The translations under genes were made by a program, and so were the position numbers. 64,000 nucleotides of DNA from Desulfobacterales bacterium (GTDB lineage: Bacteria; Desulfobacterota; Desulfobacteria; Desulfobacterales; UBA2245): contig JAXGZF010000007.1 of assembly GCA_040771865.1 (NCBI GenBank), positions 186,001 to 250,000 on the forward strand, in the 5' to 3' direction. The notes under the pieces were generated by a model. The model had not been told where the DNA came from. It was given only the letters and a program-made list of their open reading frames with translations, and made no database searches. Every line of letters starts with the position of its first letter. The first letter of the stretch is position 1. Shown one piece after another: positions 37,748 through 53,529 of the stretch.

Positions 37748-38941
37748 TTATTGAATAATTTCGCTGACCACGCCGGCGCCGACAGTTCGGCCGCCCTCAC
37801 GGATCGCAAATCTGAGCTCTTTTTCCATCGCTATCGGTGTGATCAGCTCCACGCTGATCGTCACATTGTCTCCCGGCATGATCATCTCTACGCCCTCCGG
37901 CAACGACAACACACCTGTCACATCCGTCGTCCGAAAATAAAACTGAGGCCGGTATCCATTGAAAAACGGCGTATGACGCCCGCCTTCCTCTTTGCTCAAA
38001 ATGTACACCTCGGCCTTGAACTTCGTATGCGGCGTTATCGAACCCGGCTTCGATACTACCTGACCACGCTCCACTTCCTCCCGCTTGGTCCCCCGAAGCA
38101 ACAATCCTACATTGTCTCCCGCCTGCCCCACATCCAGCAGTTTGCGGAACATCTCCACTCCCGTGCATACCGTCTTGAACGTCGGCCGAATACCTACAAT
38201 CTCAACTTCCTCACCCACCTTCACCTGGCCTCGCTCTACACGGCCCGTCACCACAGTACCACGCCCAGAAATGCTGAATACATCCTCTACAGGCATCAAA
38301 AAAGGCTTGTCAATCTCGCGCTGCGGCTCAGGAATAAACGTGTCTATCGCATCCATCAACTCAAATATGCATTTCGCCTCCGCACTGTTCGGATCGTCAC
38401 TCTCCAGCGCCTTCAACGCACTCCCTCGAATGATCGGCGTCTCGTCCCCGGGAAACTCATACTTGTCCAAAAGCTCCCGAAGCTCCAACTCCACCAGCTC
38501 GATCAGTTCCTCGTCGTCCACCATGTCGCACTTGTTCAAAAATACCACTATCCGGGGCACACCCACCTGCCGAGCCAGCAATATGTGCTCACGCGTCTGC
38601 GGCATCGGTCCGTCGTCAGCACCTACCACCAGTATCGCTCCATCCATCTGCGCCGCACCCGTGATCATGTTCTTGATATAGTCCGCATGACCCGGACAGT
38701 CCACATGGGCATAATGACGCTTCTCCGTCTGATACTCCACATGCGCCGTCGCTATCGTGATCCCCCGCGCCTTCTCCTCCGGCGCCTTGTCTATCTGATC
38801 AAACGGCACAAAATCCGCCAACCCCTTCAATCCCATATGCTTCGTGATCGCCGCTGTCAACGTCGTCTTTCCATGGTCTATATGACCTATCGTACCCACA
38901 TTCACGTGCGGCTTCGTTCGCTCAAATTTCTCCTTCGCCAT
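37748..38941 (-). CDS. tuf: elongation factor Tu (copy in str position)
   Basis: [26 protein letters not shown]. Confidence 0.99.
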
Positions 38942-39001
38942 CTCGTCCTCCCCTGCAAAGCGGGCAACCTTTTGTTGCACCCCAAATCAAAATCTAATCC
39001 A

Positions 39002-40030: not shown

Positions 40031-43000
40031 CTATCGGGTTTCAATCTCAATGTCTCCGTATGTTGCCACGCCGGTTCCGGCTGGAATCAACCGACCCATA
40101 ATCACATTTTCCTTCAAACCCCGCAGATAATCCTTGGCGGCAGCAATGCTTGCATCGGTCAGAACCTTGGTTGTTTCTTGAAACGATGCGGCTGAAATAA
40201 AACTGTCCGTGCTCAACGACGCCTTGGTGATGCCGAGAATCAGAGGCTCGGCCTGGGCGGGGTTTTCGCCTTTCTCGATAATTGCCGCGTTGGCCTCTTC
40301 AAATACTGCGCGGTCAACCTGTTCTTCTGCAATAAAGTCCGTATCACCGGCATCGGTCACCTTGACCCTTCGCATCATTTGCCGGACGATCACCTCAATA
40401 TGTTTATCGTTAATGCGAACACCCTGCAACCGGTAAACCTCCTGAACCTCGTTGACCAGGTATCGGGCCAGAGCAACCTCCCCCTTGATCGACAAAATAT
40501 CCTGTGGATTAGCCGCACCCCCGACCAACATTTCGCCGGCCCGAACGTAATCACCCTCATACACATTGATATGCTTTCCTCGAGGAATCAGATACTCACG
40601 TTTATCCCCGACATCAACAGGTGATACGATCACCTTTTGCTTGCCCTTCTTGGTCCCTTTCGAAATCGCAACATACCCGTCGATCTCACTTAGTGTCGCG
40701 GTCTCCTTAGGCTTGCGAACCTCGAATAGTTCCACAACTCTGGGCAAGCCGCCCGTGATGTCTTTGGTCTTGGTGGTTGCTCTCGGCAGCTTGGCCAAAA
40801 CATCCCCCGCCTTGACATAAAAACCTTCTTCAACCATCAAAATCGCATCGACCGGAAGTGGATACCGGGCAAGGCCCGAACCGCCTGGCAGCTTTGCCGT
40901 CTTGCCTTCCTTGTCCTTAATGGAAATGCGGGGCCGTTCCTCACCTGTTTTGGATTCCATAACCATGCGACTGGATTTGCCGGTCACAGAGTCCACCTTT
41001 TCCTGAAGGGTCTTTCCCAGAACGATATCGCCGAACTTTACGGCGCCGTCGATCTCAGAGATAATCGGCGTAGTAAACGGGTCCCAGGTCGCCATCAGAT
41101 CGCCGGCTTTCACCTGCTGGCCATCGGCGACATGCAGGTGGGCGCCATAAATGACCGGGCACTTCTCGCGTTCGCGTCCGCTCTCCCCAATGATGGCAAA
41201 CTCACCGCCCCGGCGGTTCATTACAATTCGCAGGCCCGATGAATTTTGAACAACCTGTAACTCTCCGTATTGAACGGTTCCATCCACCCGGGCCCGAATA
41301 TCGGCCTGTTCCACCCGACGGCTCGCCGTTCCACCGATGTGAAAGGTTCTCATGGTCAACTGGGTGCCCGGTTCTCCGATCGACTGTGCAGCCAGAATAC
41401 CGACAGCCTGGCCCAGTTCAACCGGACCGCCGTGCGACAAATCCCGGCCGTAACACTTCGCACACACCCCGTAACGGGATCTACAGGCCAGAACTGACCG
41501 AATCTTTACGCTGGTCAAACCGGATTTGTCGATTTTTTTCACCAGCGATTCATCGATTTCCTGCCCACTTCTCACGATAATCTCGTCGGTAAAGGTATCA
41601 TGAATGTCTTCGGCGGCCACCCGCCCCAGAATGCGTTCTCCAAGACGCTGAATAACCTCGCCGCCTTCCATCAGGGACTCGATCTCCACGCCCTGATGTG
41701 TTCCACAATCGATTTCCGAAATTACGCTGTCCTGAGCCACATCGGCCAAACGCCGGGTCAGATAACCCGAGTTGGCTGTTTTCAGAGCGGTATCGGCCAA
41801 ACCCTTTCGAGCGCCATGAGTGGAAATAAAATACTGAAGCACCGAAAGGCCTTCCCGGAAATTCGCCGTAATCGGGGTCTCGATGATCTCCCCTGAGGGT
41901 TTGGCCATCAATCCGCGCATACCGGCAAGCTGCCGCATCTGGTCCTTGCTGCCACGCGCCCCTGAATCCGCCATCATGTAAATGGGGTTGAACCCTTCGG
42001 CCGTATCTTTGATCTGGGTTCCCGCGGCCTTTTTCATGGCATCCATCATCTCATTTGCCACATCGTCGGTAGCCTTGGCCCAGATATCAACGACCTTATT
42101 GTATTTCTCACCCTGGGTGATCAAACCCTCGGCATATTGACGGCCGATCTCCACCACCTGTTCTTCAGCCTTGCTTAAAATATCCCATTTTGTGGCAGGA
42201 ATGATCATCGCATCAATTGAGATGGACAATCCGCCATGCGTTGCATACTGGTATCCGATGTCCTTGAGACGGTCGGACAGAATCACCGTGGCCTTTGCCC
42301 CGAGATTCCGATAGGTATAATCAATCAGATCACGGATGCTCTTTTTCTCCATCACATGATTAATAAGCTCAAAGGAAATTCCAGGCCGCTTATCAATAAT
42401 CTGAAAGATATGGTAGGCATGTTCGGAATAGACGATATCGCTGATCTGACCGATCTCAAGGGCAAATATGGTTTCTGAAACCGCGGGGGAAACAGTAAAC
42501 ACCCGCTCAAAGTCATCGGCTCGAATCAATCCAATATGACCATCGTAATTCTTATCCGGACTTTCTGAATACTGTCGAACCATTTCAATGAAATCCGATC
42601 CGCCGGAAATCCGATCCATGATGCTTCTGGCAAGCTCTTTGTCCGACACCATGACATGACGCATCACCATCACGCTCTCAGTCGGAATGACCTCCCACAA
42701 CAGAATACGCCCAACCGTAGTTTCAACCCGTTCGTTGTTCATCCGCACCACGATCCTGGCGTGCATGTCCACGGCTCCCGAATCATAGGCCATGCGGACC
42801 TCTTCGGGATTGGAGAACATCTTGCCTTCGCCTTTCGCCCCGGACACATCGCGCGTCATGTAATAAATACCCAGTACTATGTCCTGGGTGGGAACGATGA
42901 TTGGACTGCCGTTGGCCGGAGACAAAATATTGTTGCTCGAAAGCATCAGCACACGCGCTTCGATCTGTGATTCAACGGAAAGCGGAACATGTACGGCCAT

Positions 43001-44395
43001 CTGGTCGCCGTCAAAGTCGGCATTAAAAGCCGTACATACGAGAGGATGCAGCTGAATCGCCTTGCCCTCAATCAATATGGGTTCAAATGCCTGAATTCCC
43101 AGACGGTGCAGCGTTGGCGCACGGTTGAGCATCACAGGATACTCTTTGACCACCTCGTCCAGCGTATCCCAGACCACCGGCGTCTCGCGCTCGACCAGCT
43201 TCTTGGCGCTCTTTACAGTCGAAACCTCTCCTTTTTGTTCCAGACGGTAATAGATAAAAGGTTTGAACAATTCAAGCGCCATTTTCTTGGGAAGACCGCA
43301 CTGATGAAGCCGCAGATTCGGACCGACCGTGATGACAGTACGGCCGGAGTAATCCACCCGCTTGCCGAGCAGATTCTGCCGGAACCGTCCCTGTTTCCCC
43401 TTGAGCGTATCACTGAGGGATTTGAGAGGACGTTTGTTGGTTCCCGTAATGACTCGACCGTGTCTTCCATTATCAAAAAGAACGTCAACAGCTTCCTGAA
43501 GCATGCGCTTTTCATTGCGAACAATGATATCCGGCGCCTTTAAATCCATCAATCTTTTTAAGCGATTATTACGGTTGATCACCCGCCTGTAAAGATCATT
43601 CAGATCCGATGTCGCAAAACGACCGCCTTCCAATGGCACAAGGGGACGCAGGTCTGGGGGCAGAACCGGAATGACGTCCATGATCATCCACACCGGATCT
43701 ACGCCGGATTTTCGGAATGCATCTACAATTTTCAACCGTTTGGCCAGTTTTTTCCTTTTGGCATCAGACCCTGTTGAACGGATTTCCTCACGAAGCTCCT
43801 TGTATAAAGCATCCAGATCAATGTTCTCCAGCAGCTTCTTGATGGCGTTGGCCCCGATGTCCGCCTCAAACTTCGATCCATGAAGTTCCAGAGCTTCCTG
43901 ATATTTATCGTCCGAAAGAAGCTGGCATTTACCCAGACCGGTATCCTTTGGATCGGTGACGATGTAGCTGTCAAAATAGAGAACTTTTTCCAGATTTTTC
44001 AGCGTCAGATCAAGCAGATTGCCGATTTTGCTGGGCAGACTCTTCAGAAACCAGATATGAGCGACAGGCGTAGCCAGCTCGATATGCCCCATGCGTTCAC
44101 GCCGCACCTTGGATTGAATCACCTCCACACCGCATTTTTCACAGATGACCCCGCGGTGCTTCATTCGTTTGTATTTACCGCAATTGCATTCATAATCCTT
44201 GGTGGGGCCGAATATCTTGGCGCAGAACAACCCGTCCCGCTCAGGCTTAAACGTTCGATAATTTATGGTTTCAGGCTTTTTGATCTCGCCATGCGACCAC
44301 TGACGAATCTGCTCCGATGATGCCAGTGCTATTTGGACAGAGGAATAGCGTCGAGGATCCGTTGGTTTGGCGAAAAAATCGTATAGAGTTTCCAA
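40031..44395 (-). CDS. rpoC: RNA polymerase beta' subunit carrying an in-frame parvulin-domain insertion
   Basis: [10 protein letters not shown] active site, zinc-binding Cys motifs; TTG start after AAGGAG; insertion at 42386-42682. Confidence 0.99.
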
Positions 44396-44405
44396 ATCGT
44401 TCTCC

Positions 44406-47400
44406 TTATTCTTTCCCTTCAATCAGGTTGATGTCCAGACCCAGACTTTGCAGTTCCTTGGTCAGAACTCTGAAGGATTCGGGCAAACCCGGTTCCAGAA
44501 CATTTTGCCCTTTTACGATCTTTTCATACATACGCGTTCTTCCGACCATGTCATCCGACTTGACCGTTAAGAACTCCTGCAAGGCATGCGCCGCTCCATA
44601 GGCTTCCATAGCCCATACCTCCATTTCACCCAGCCGCTGACCACCGAACTGGGCTTTTCCGCCGAGGGGCTGTTGTGTTACCAGCGAATACGGACCGATA
44701 GAACGCGCATGAATCTTGTCATCGACCAGATGATGAAGCTTCAACATGTACATGGAGCCCACGGTGATCTTCTCCTTGAAGGGTTCACCACTGCGCCCGT
44801 CGTACAATGTAACCTGACCCGTTGGGGGCAATCCAGCCTCTTCAAGAAGCGCCTTGATTTCCTCTTCTTTGGCTCCGTCAAATACGGGTGTCGCCATATG
44901 AACGCCATCCCTGTATTTCGCGGCGAATGCGCATAACTCGGCATCATCAAGGCCATCAATTTCCAGCCGAACCTGCTCGTCAGTAAAAACACGTTTGAGT
45001 TTGGCCTTGAGTTCGCTCAAACACTGTTGCTCCAGCAGGGCATTAATTTGCCGACCAAGGCCCTTTGCCGCATATCCCAGGTGAATTTCCAGAACCTGCC
45101 CCACGTTCATTCGGGAGGGAACTCCCAAGGGGTTTAAAACCATATCTACGGGCGTTCCGTCTTCAAAATAGGGGAGATCTTCAATGGGCAGAATTCTTGA
45201 GACAACGCCCTTGTTCCCGTGACGGCCAGCCATCTTATCACCGACAGACAACTTTCGTTTCATGGCCACATAAACCTTGACCATCTTGATCACACCCGGC
45301 GGAAGATCATCGCCCTTTTCGTACCGGCTTACGTATTGCTCAAACTCCCCGCGATACTGCTCGCACTGGCCGCGGTAAATCTCGACCAGGCCATTGAGTC
45401 GCTCAGTTAATTCAGGATCTTTTAACAGCATATTTTCAAACTGATCCGCAGGAATGTTAAAGATAGCTTCTTTATTAATTACAGCGCCTTTGGCCAGATA
45501 CAGTTTTTTGCCTTTTTTTATAGGTGAAAGGCAGATTTGACCGGCCAGCAGCGAAGCTGTCTGCTCCCGAAGGACGGTTTCCAGCACCTGAAGCTTATCC
45601 TCAAGATTTCTCTCGAGAACGAGGATCTCCTGATCTTCGATCCATCTAGTCCGGTCGTCCTTTTCAACTCCTCGACGGGAAAAGACCCTTGCATCAATGA
45701 CAATACCCTCAATACCCGGGGGAACCCGAAGGGAGGTATCCTTGACATCGCCTGCTTTCTCACCGAAAATTGCTCTCAGCAGTTTTTCCTCGGGCGACAG
45801 CTGAGTCTCGCCCTTTGGCGTGATCTTGCCCACGAGTATATCTCCCGGAACAACCTCGGCCCCCAGACAAATAATGCCGCTGTCATCCAGGTTTTTTAAT
45901 GCCTCGTCGCCGACATTGGGAATATCGCGGGTGATTTCCTCCTTGCCGAGCTTGGTGTCCCGGGCCACCACCTCAAATTCCTCGATATGAATCGATGTAT
46001 AAATCCCGTCCTGCACCAGCCGTTCACTGACCAGGATGGAATCCTCAAAATTATATCCGCCCCATGGCATGAAAGCAACTGTGACATTTTTGCCCAAGGC
46101 CAACTCCCCCTGATTCGTTGCCGGGCCATCGGCCAGAATGTCTCCGGGTTTGACCTTCTGACCTTTCACGACAATAGGTCTCTGATTAAAGGTGGTATTT
46201 TGATTGGATCGAATAAATTTTGAAAAATTAAAAACCGACACTCGATTTTCAGGGTCATCATGCTTCAGCACGATTCTCGAGGCGTCCACAGCCACGACCT
46301 CGCCTTTTCTGCTAGCCACTATAGAAACACCGGAATCTTTTGCAACGACGCCTTCCATGCCTGTCCCGACCAGAGGCGCTTCATTCATAAGCAGAGGAAC
46401 GGCCTGACGCTGCATATTTGAACCCATCAGAGCCCGGTTGGCATCGTCATTTTCCAGAAATGGAATCAGGGATGCGGAAACGCTCACCAGCTGATTGGGG
46501 GAAACATCCATGAGCTTGATATCTTCTTTTTTGACCATCATGAATTCACCGGCAACGCGGGATGTCACCATGGAATTGAGATAGCAGTTGTTTTCATCCA
46601 CTGGCGCATTCGCCTGGGCGATTGGATATTCCTTTTCCTCAAACGCGCTGAGGAATCGAACCTGATTGGTCACCGCAGTATCCCGAACGACGCGGTACGG
46701 AGTCTCTATAAATCCATAAGCATTCACCTGCGCGTAGGTGCTCAGTGAAACAATGAGGCCGATGTTGGGGCCTTCCGGAGTTTCGATCGGGCATATGCGG
46801 CCATAATGCGAAGGGTGTACGTCCCGTACTTCAAAGCCAGCGCGTTCACGCGTCAGCCCTCCCGGCCCCAGAGCGCTCAGACGGCGCTTATGGGTGGTCT
46901 CGGAAAGCGGATTGGTCTGATCCATAAACTGACTCAACTGGCTGGTTCCGAAAAACTCTTTGACAACCGCGGAAACCGGTTTGGGATTTACCAAGTCATG
47001 CGGCATCAATGAATCAACTTCCTGCAGGCTCATTCTTTCCTTTATCGCCCGCTCCATGCGGACCAAGCCGATGCGGTACTGGTTTTCGAGCAACTCGCCG
47101 ACGGCTCTAACCCGACGGTTTCCCAGATGATCAATGTCATCGATCTGTCCCTGCGTATCACGTAATTCCACGAGCGTCTTCGTGGTGAGCAGAATGTCTT
47201 CCTTGCGCAGGGTTGTCACGCTGACAGGAGTTTGAATTCCAAGGCGCAGATTAATTTTCAACCGCCCGACCCCGGAAAGGTCGTAATAAGCAGATTTGAA
47301 AAACAGATGGTCGACAAATTCCTGAGCCACTTCAGGCGTTGCAGGATTGCCGGGTCGCAACCTGCGATAAATTTCAAGCAATGCTTCTTCCTTGCTCTCC

Positions 47401-52335: not shown

Positions 52336-53529
52336 CTATGCAATAATTTCGCTGACCACGCCGGCGCCGACAGTTCGGCCGCCCTCACGGATCGCAAATC
52401 TGAGCTCTTTTTCCATCGCTATCGGTGTGATCAGCTCCACGCTGATCGTCACATTGTCTCCCGGCATGATCATCTCTACGCCCTCCGGCAACGACAACAC
52501 ACCTGTCACATCCGTCGTCCGAAAATAAAACTGAGGCCGGTATCCATTGAAAAACGGCGTATGACGCCCGCCTTCCTCTTTGCTCAAAATGTACACCTCG
52601 GCCTTGAACTTCGTATGCGGCGTTATCGAACCCGGCTTCGATACTACCTGACCACGCTCCACTTCCTCCCGCTTGGTCCCCCGAAGCAACAATCCTACAT
52701 TGTCTCCCGCCTGCCCCACATCCAGCAGTTTGCGGAACATCTCCACTCCCGTGCATACCGTCTTGAACGTCGGCCGAATACCTACAATCTCAACTTCCTC
52801 ACCCACCTTCACCTGGCCTCGCTCTACACGGCCCGTCACCACAGTACCACGCCCAGAAATGCTGAATACATCCTCTACAGGCATCAAAAAAGGCTTGTCA
52901 ATCTCGCGCTGCGGCTCAGGAATAAACGTGTCTATCGCATCCATCAACTCAAATATGCATTTCGCCTCCGCACTGTTCGGATCGTCACTCTCCAGCGCCT
53001 TCAACGCACTCCCTCGAATGATCGGCGTCTCGTCCCCGGGAAACTCATACTTGTCCAAAAGCTCCCGAAGCTCCAACTCCACCAGCTCGATCAGTTCCTC
53101 GTCGTCCACCATGTCGCACTTGTTCAAAAATACCACTATCCGGGGCACACCCACCTGCCGAGCCAGCAATATGTGCTCACGCGTCTGCGGCATCGGTCCG
53201 TCGTCAGCACCTACCACCAGTATCGCTCCATCCATCTGCGCCGCACCCGTGATCATGTTCTTGATATAGTCCGCATGACCCGGACAGTCCACATGGGCAT
53301 AATGACGCTTCTCCGTCTGATACTCCACATGCGCCGTCGCTATCGTGATCCCCCGCGCCTTCTCCTCCGGCGCCTTGTCTATCTGATCAAACGGCACAAA
53401 ATCCGCCAACCCCTTCAATCCCATATGCTTCGTGATCGCCGCTGTCAACGTCGTCTTTCCATGGTCTATATGACCTATCGTACCCACATTCACGTGCGGC
53501 TTCGTTCGCTCAAATTTCTCCTTCGCCAT
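52336..53529 (-). CDS. tuf: elongation factor Tu (tufB position)
   Basis: 397 aa, identical to the other copy except for the last residue. Confidence 0.99.

Follow-up and report, generated by a model that had tools for sequence, protein, structure and literature searches.

We analysed a stretch of 64,000 nt from a Desulfobacterales bacterium (assembly GCA_040771865.1, contig JAXGZF010000007.1, positions 186,001 to 250,000), here called the window, in which the gene for the β′ subunit of RNA polymerase, rpoC, carries an additional domain. The gene was found at positions 40031..44422 on the minus strand as an open reading frame (ORF) of 1463 residues from the first TTG, uninterrupted by stops, and a Pfam profile search matched all of Rpb1_1 to Rpb1_5 in it (E-values from 1e-83 to 6e-22). 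A second TTG is located at 44395 (codon 10). As this codon is preceded by AAGGAG 6 nt upstream, and as a 93%-identical homologue (P0002, 1454 aa) starts at the same point, the true start of rpoC is probably the TTG at 44395, giving a protein of 1454 aa. With the first TTG as its start (44395-44422 region, minus strand), the ORF shares 17 nt with the end of rpoB.

A segment of 99 residues encoded at 42386..42682 on the minus strand (ORF codons 581-679, which are residues 572-670 counted from the codon-10 TTG) has the fold of a parvulin. An earlier reading made from the window alone (the sequence-only reading) had described this segment as an in-frame insert in RpoC within Rpb1_3, and its coordinates and numbering were reproduced here. 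The insert breaks the Pfam match to Rpb1_3 and falls inside that domain, as had been claimed, between the NADFDGD region and the rim helices of β′. The host segment directly before it ([14 protein letters not shown]; 42683..42727, minus strand) is the last conserved β′ element ahead of the junction and can be aligned with E. coli and Pseudomonas β′ as far as residue 584. In the 86 sequences that we aligned for the family, this segment has an invariant G and R, and its T, T, L, W, E and P are at least 90% conserved. The alignment with solved β′ resumes in the segment directly after the insert ([15 protein letters not shown]; 42341..42385, minus strand), where N and K never vary and the conservation of F is 90% or more.

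We compared a 467-aa query spanning the insert site with the sequences of solved β′ subunits. There were 85 matches, and nearly all of the 60 that were listed are split in two stretches, the first of which stops at residue 584 (E. coli and Pseudomonas numbering). Of the 60, six actinobacterial rows run as a single stretch, and the B. subtilis row reaches query residue 266. Query residues 207-297 are unmatched in the two alignments that were viewed residue by residue; in these sequences nothing occupies the site. The earlier statement that E. coli β′ has no insert is supported by the E. coli coordinates and the Pseudomonas alignment. The extra domain is placed in frame between regions common to bacterial β′. 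As leads only, we take Rpb1_3 to be the equivalent of the “pore 1” domain of RNA polymerase II, and a segment about 30 residues downstream of the insert to match the helix lining ppGpp site 1 beside omega in E. coli. A place close to the secondary channel, as put forward in the sequence-only reading, is a conjecture.

Profile searches and structure prediction agree on what the insert is. The insert alone matched Pfam Rotamase (PF00639) with 49.0 bits (E = 1.3e-12, cut-off 21.7), the whole RpoC protein matched it with 43.8 bits, and Rotamase_3 also passed for the insert alone (43.7 bits, E = 4.6e-11). Rotamase_2 stayed under its cut-off (23.2 vs. 27). Among PDB sequences, the best matches of the insert were PrsA (6vj6, E = 3.7e-10), SurA and E. 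coli Par10, the last of these (1jns, E = 1.8e-5) being covered from residue 6 to residue 89 of its 92. AlphaFold2 was run on an alignment of the 86 insert sequences with 15 flanking residues on each side. The model has a predicted local distance difference test score (pLDDT) above 90 throughout the insert, and its strands and helices come in the order known from parvulins, whose fold is an antiparallel sheet of four strands packed with helices. A Foldseek search of the model against the PDB gave 79 matches at E = 0.001 or better, and every listed row is a parvulin: PrsA (6vj4, E = 1.5e-7), SurA, Par14, Par10, Pin1 and PpiD. The Pfam scan found no WW domain in RpoC. We conclude that the insert is a genuine parvulin (PpiC-type) domain by profile hidden Markov model and by predicted fold, as the sequence-only reading had held.

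A second AlphaFold2 model of 366 aa placed the insert in its β′ context. Again the insert was modelled with pLDDT above 90, while the 10-residue junction blocks reached 84 and 84-90, and the predicted template modelling score (pTM) was 0.69. In both models the first parvulin strand begins at insert residue 4 and the last one ends at residue 99, leaving linkers of about 3 residues on the N-terminal side and at most about 4 residues on the C-terminal side. As the end strands of the parvulin join the host loop almost directly through these short linkers, the models predict that the domain is attached to β′ rather rigidly.

The insert is widespread in the order to which the window belongs. A protein search with RpoC residues 540-720 returned 863 proteins. 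The 120 that were listed are mostly about 1465 aa long, with a few partial ones (from 950 aa), and for about 113 of them PF00639 or PF13145 is among the precomputed annotations. Their named sources are metagenome-assembled genomes (MAGs) of Desulfobacterales or Desulfobacteraceae, Desulfococcus, Desulfonema ishimotonii and an Olavius symbiont; one partial RpoC record among them is named “peptidylprolyl isomerase”. At the genome level, about 178 of the 201 genomes sampled from the GTDB order match the insert with its flanks, all at E-values no weaker than 8.7e-18. For these, 150 listed rows span the whole query, mostly in ORFs of more than 1400 aa, with the shorter ones in fragmented or broken assemblies; the remaining genomes were judged from their E-values. 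Ten of the latter were inspected, and nine contain an intact insert and one (G001) a frameshifted insert. Weak matches only were obtained for 22 genomes of the order, and one further genome (G156) gave no match. Ten of the 22 were inspected: five (G007, G020, G070, G045 and G082) have an insert-less RpoC of 1073-1437 aa, one of which is cut at a contig end, and in the other five (G002, G015, G038, G039 and G086) no rpoC match was found.

In a sample of 401 genomes from the phylum, an RpoC-embedded match was present in 14 of 14 genomes of the order, the window genome included, and in none of 387 genomes outside it at E = 1e-14 or better. A search with the insert only agrees, and the three matches among the 387 genomes sit in ORFs of 325-331 aa. 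The insert is also absent from all five outgroup RpoC proteins that we inspected directly. In this sample, the survey of Desulfobacterota RpoC that the sequence-only reading had called for finds the insert confined to the order. A 50%-identity representative library is uninformative for the occurrence of the insert in RpoC, as full-length RpoC representatives do not appear in it; its matches include eight short RpoC fragments, and the four of more than 1000 aa are multi-parvulin proteins.

We extracted the region from 85 further genomes, mostly one per family. In all of these the site is filled at the identical position by 96-126 residues, and the RpoC flanks align residue for residue across the genomes. 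Within the parvulin domain itself, several lineages carry secondary insertions of 8-27 aa. G054 has 27 additional residues following the first helix, G042 has 14 ahead of the S-x-D loop, G013 has 11 within the G-x-x-G loop, and in G009 and G032 the last hairpin is longer by 8 to 10. In Desulfonema ishimotonii RpoC (P0118, 1503 aa), a β′ segment of about 40 residues ending in TTVGRLL is tandem-duplicated before the parvulin domain. We also observed a match on an Anaerolineaceae contig, from another phylum (L003, locus 1748-1900; 39% identity to query residues 105-151, which comprise the insert end and flank, E = 4e-6). As this locus has no NADFDGD anchor, the match is probably to a free parvulin.

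The history of the insert was followed on an RpoC tree built with FastTree (LG + gamma) from 744 columns, with the insert columns removed and rooted on five outgroups. All insert-bearing sequences fall in one clade (support 0.98), and the insert-less G007 and G082 lie just outside it. The three other insert-less sequences, G070, G020 and G045, are nested in an eight-member subclade (support 0.99), where G045 is sister to a carrier (0.94). The deeper supports on this path are modest (0.67-0.88). At the insert site, G070 and G020 have 2-5 residues, and G045 has a 24-residue acidic linker without similarity to parvulins. These nested lineages retain the carrier-typical Trp of LLWE, a position at which Arg or Ser is found in the basal and outgroup sequences. 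The tree suggests that the insert was gained once and then lost at least one time, probably twice. The nearest free relatives of the insert are proteins of 288-340 aa that match it through a single domain with 36-44% identity, and seven of the nine that were scanned combine SurA_N with Rotamase. Most likely, an ancestor of most Desulfobacterales acquired the domain in a single event from a foldase gene of the PrsA/SurA type.

The insert is under purifying but relaxed selection, with far more room for change than the core of the subunit has. Over 3655 sequence pairs, the mean pairwise identity is 32% in the insert vs. 67% in 181 flanking residues. No stop was found in any of 85 inserts. The ratio of nonsynonymous to synonymous substitution rates (dN/dS), a check that had been proposed together with the insert, could be used for three pairs, the others being near saturation (dS about 1 or undefined). 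For the close pair of the window and G014, the insert has 0.114 and the flanks 0.118; for the two further pairs the values are 0.32 vs. 0.13 and 0.40 vs. 0.16. The insert values of 0.114-0.40 bear out selection on the domain.

We then mapped the active site by aligning the insert with PrsA, with the paralogues encoded in the same genome and with free parvulins. The catalytic tetrad is presumably the one corresponding to Pin1 H59-C113-T152-H157, and we take the proline pocket to correspond to L122, M130 and F134. In the window protein the tetrad reads H-S-S-H. The first His, in RH (insert residue 9, codon at 42656..42658, minus strand), corresponds in the alignments to a His in both PrsA and the PpiD-like parvulin of the genome. 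The Cys/Asp position is taken by Ser41 (42560..42562, minus strand), the Ser of YSESP, where the aligned residue is Asp in PrsA and Cys in the 635-aa paralogue. Ser86 at the Thr/Ser position and the second His, His91 in YHI, were placed by alignment with paralogues and free parvulins (42410..42427, minus strand for the segment from Ser86 to His91). Both histidines fall on those of PrsA. The earlier claim that the window protein keeps both parvulin histidines and has Ser at the Cys/Asp position is therefore correct. The 635-aa PpiD-like paralogue in the same genome has the canonical H-C-T-H.

Across the 86 family members these positions are degenerate. Residue 9 is His in 68 and residue 91 in 71; both histidines are present in 61, and one or both are gone in 25. 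Residue 41 is Ser in 46, Ala in 12, Gly in 10 and Asp in 8, and never Cys. Ser or Thr is found at residue 86 in 22 members. A complete canonical tetrad of His, Cys/Asp, Thr/Ser and His occurs in one of the 86, which is not the window protein. The hydrophobic pocket is better kept: positions 50, 58 and 62, which align to L, M and F of free parvulins and are Ile, Phe and Phe in the window protein, are all hydrophobic in 74 of 86 members. Asp43, two residues past the nucleophile position, is Asp in 59 of 86 and is common to the closest free relatives.

The pocket positions of the window insert overlap with a family-specific motif, R-K-D-E-F-x-R-[IV]-F (42497..42535, minus strand, from I50 through F58 to F62), which stands in place of the usual Gly-containing loop and is followed by an extra segment of 6 residues. 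The E57 position is acidic in 82 of 86 members. Indeed, the inserts are acidic as a whole, with a median net charge of -6 (negative in 75 of 86) and a charge of -7 in the window. The conserved positions of the insert are mostly residues of the fold core. On the Rotamase profile, RpoC inserts score 27-49 bits, with E-values that do not reach 0.001 in two of five genomes, compared with 93-111 bits for the strongest periplasmic-type paralogues in the same genomes.

Because the fold and the pocket are retained, the catalytic residues are degenerate and the domain is strongly acidic, we propose that the parvulin serves mainly as a peptide-binding module built into β′, acting as a holdase or in docking. 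We give this reading a probability of about 45%. The end strands of the domain would leave and re-enter a surface loop of Rpb1_3 and so hold it fairly rigidly on the surface of the enzyme. This acidic module, in which the fold and the hydrophobic proline pocket persist but the Cys/Asp and Thr/Ser of catalysis do not, would bind a stretch containing proline in a transcription partner, or in RNA polymerase itself while it is being assembled. As a prolyl isomerase it would have little activity at best, and that activity would differ from lineage to lineage. A peptide binder is, in our view, more likely than a classical enzyme.

Several observations weigh against this proposal. The presumed cleft positions show no clear excess of conservation over the fold core among the 86 sequences, and the “pocket” residues that are kept may simply be structural. 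Three insert-less lineages are nested among the carriers; these losses imply that the domain is dispensable in some backgrounds, which would also fit a near-neutral passenger. In the opposite direction, Asp43 could act as a substitute catalytic acid, and with both histidines and a Ser/Ser pair the protein of the window organism may retain some activity. Further, the mapping of tetrad and pocket to Pin1 and Par14 numbering is presumed. The results show the fold and site of the domain, its distribution, and the patterns of selection and of residues, from which we infer its rigidity, its peptide binding and who any partner might be.

The proposal closest to that of the sequence-only reading is an active prolyl isomerase resident on RNA polymerase, which would act on transcription or sigma factors, RNA polymerase subunits or nascent proteins as a built-in conformational switch. 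It draws on the two histidines and the serines of the window protein, on the retention of both histidines and the pocket in most of the family, and on the Asp43 shared with the closest free parvulins. Transcription proteins are plausible clients, since E. coli PpiC co-purifies with NusG, Rho, SuhB and RpoA in the pull-downs described in PMC7353009. The insert is, moreover, the sole Rotamase match of the window genome outside the 635-aa and 344-aa ORFs. The family as a whole argues against it: of the 86 members, 68 have Ser, Ala or Gly at residue 41 and 8 have Cys or Asp, the tetrad is complete in a single one, Ser or Thr at residue 86 is the minority state, and 25 lack one or both histidines. 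The Pfam scores are far below those of the paralogues, the insert and the free small parvulins show no complementary pattern, and the domain has been secondarily lost. We consider an active enzyme somewhat unlikely. In its more specific form, the β′ parvulin would be a working isomerase with a non-canonical Ser/Asp43 site that switches prolines in NusG, Rho, α, a sigma factor or β′ itself; this we regard as quite improbable. If it were true, proline isomerisation would be an integral, enzyme-borne step of transcription control, and the domain a covalent bacterial counterpart of Pin1/Ess1 on RNA polymerase II.

Another possibility, which we hold to be unlikely, is that the domain is a structural element without a ligand or a near-neutral passenger, that is, a parvulin in a tolerant surface loop that forms a stabilising or sterically relevant bulge. 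Some other lineage-specific inserts are thought to act in this way. The much faster evolution of the insert relative to its host is consistent with this, as are the one or probably two losses (one of which left an unrelated linker of 24 aa), the tolerance of nested insertions of 8-27 aa in several lineages and the concentration of conserved positions in the fold core. A passenger would, however, hardly be expected to persist at the same site and in an intact frame in about 178 of 201 genomes across many families, nor to show dN/dS values of 0.11-0.40 in the three least saturated pairs. The R-K-D-E-F-x-R motif and the acidic charge are not needed for the fold and likewise speak against a passenger.

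That the insert is an artefact, whether through chimeric assembly, through a wrongly called frame, or as an intein or mobile element excised from the mature protein, is extremely improbable: it occupies the same codon position in independent assemblies, including the single-contig G049 and G085, the rpoC ORF of the window is uninterrupted, no Hint or intein family is among the RpoC Pfam matches up to E = 1, the C-terminal junction (DKR followed by PG) has no His-Asn then Cys/Ser/Thr, and the junctions join parvulin strands directly. Chimeric assembly, which had been named as a way in which the insert could prove false, is ruled out by the identical site in the 85 other genomes and in about 178 of the 201 genomes of the order. 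Nothing was found in support of an artefact in the window. In the related MAG G001, the rpoC gene (L014/L015 on G001:C12, same order) has two frameshifts inside the insert; the parvulin sequence carries on intact in the shifted frames, and these look like indel errors of the assembly rather than decay.

A genome-wide Rotamase scan of the window genome gave three ORFs, of 635 aa, 344 aa and RpoC itself, and no small free parvulin of the Par10 type. From their PpiD-like and SurA-like sizes, we assume that the two long ORFs encode envelope proteins, in which case the RpoC insert may be the only cytoplasmic parvulin domain of this genome. Rotamase ORFs of 93-98 aa are present in two of five insert-bearing genomes and in none of five insert-less genomes. 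As small parvulins thus coexist with the insert in some carriers and are absent from all five non-carriers, we reject the idea that the insert is a fused replacement of a lost free PpiC. Compensation for a loss of omega was likewise ruled out for the window genome, in which a 90-aa Rpb6/omega ORF is present.

The β′ parvulin resembles other lineage-specific insertions of β′ in being an independently folded domain, in frame in a surface loop between conserved β′ regions. Like them, it is confined to one lineage, follows the species tree and changes more quickly than the core, and some backgrounds can do without it. The difference lies in the fold. Folds of the SBHM/HABAS and BBM2/BEAN types are typical of β′ insertions, though they do not strictly define them (PMC11515920, PMC2939025), whereas this one is an α/β parvulin, an enzyme fold. 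Known β′ inserts include β′i6/SI3 of E. coli and β′i2 of Thermus (Lane and Darst nomenclature, as cited in PMC2939025). Among inserts that have been solved or surveyed, the folds are sandwich-barrel-hybrid (HABAS), BEAN or sLC (PMC2939025, PMC11515920); the 2024 survey of β and β′ insertions gives seven locations and names HABAS, BEAN and sLC folds only (PMC11515920).

The closest relatives of the insert in sequence and fold are the parvulin modules of PrsA, SurA and PpiD. There, too, the module is flanked on both sides by a host chaperone domain, and the closest free relatives share the S-x-D signature with the insert, some of them also having Gln for His. The SurA P1 and PpiD parvulins are catalytically inactive peptide binders. 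PrsA, SurA and PpiD are extracytoplasmic and have a SurA_N-type host, whereas the host of the insert is the catalytic subunit of a cytoplasmic RNA polymerase. The R-K-D-E-F-x-R-[IV]-F motif and the 6-residue segment after it belong to the insert alone in this comparison. E. coli PpiC (Par10) has the same fold and nearly the same length; unlike the insert, it is free-standing and catalytically active. The PpiC pull-downs enriched in transcription proteins (PMC7353009) indicate that such proteins can be parvulin clients and nothing more.

A parallel with Pin1/Ess1 on RNA polymerase II, whose C-terminal domain (CTD) they act on, had also been drawn in the sequence-only reading, and it extends to a parvulin-type domain tied to a multisubunit RNA polymerase. 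Pin1 and Ess1, which target phospho-Ser-Pro repeats, exist as proteins of their own and have a WW domain and a basic phosphate-binding loop. The insert is covalently part of β′, has no WW domain and is acidic, and to our knowledge bacterial RNA polymerase is without CTD repeats. A segment of 12 residues after the first strand, present in the PpiD-like paralogue of the genome, is missing from the insert; we take this to be the place of the phosphate-binding loop of Pin1. Together with the missing WW domain, this weakens the parallel.

We know of no parvulin among the inserts treated by Lane and Darst (2010) and Iyer et al. (2004). Our full-text literature search, in which these two works were not included, found no description of a parvulin or peptidyl-prolyl isomerase (PPIase) domain in β′. 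The text of PMC11515920 and one supplement contain neither “rotamase” nor “PPIase” nor a Desulfobacterales name, the sole match to “desulfo” being “Thermodesulfobacteria”, and a 2026 survey of domain insertions (PMC13114784) contains no rotamase- or PPIase-type term. Within this scope, no published description contradicts the sequence-only reading, which knew of no such insertion. The architecture itself is already visible in public precomputed Pfam annotation, so that what is new is the recognition and characterisation of the β′ parvulin, not hidden data.

Around rpoC the gene order in the window is of the usual kind, namely tuf, nusG, rplK, rplA, rplJ, rplL, rpoB, rpoC, rpsL, rpsG, tuf, rpsJ and rplC. 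Two genes for EF-Tu are present, at 37748-38980 and 52336-53529 on the minus strand, and tuf comes immediately after rpsG without an intervening fusA, which differs from the classical str operon.

In the parts of the literature covered here, lineage-specific β′ inserts are nearly all of two or three small β-rich folds, and their known functions are regulatory: pausing, docking of factors and contacts with sigma. In an order of environmentally important sulfate reducers, the catalytic subunit has instead taken up an enzyme/chaperone fold and retained it across deep divergence, which widens the repertoire of what RNA polymerase can carry. The closely related lineages with and without the domain offer a natural experiment on the question of whether a peptide-binding or proline-isomerising module alters assembly, the recruitment of factors or the coupling of transcription and translation. 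Should the domain prove catalytically active, prolyl isomerisation would for the first time be known as a built-in part of a bacterial transcription machine; were it a docking module only, the domain would still be a clear example of an enzyme fold turned into a structural part of a core machine.

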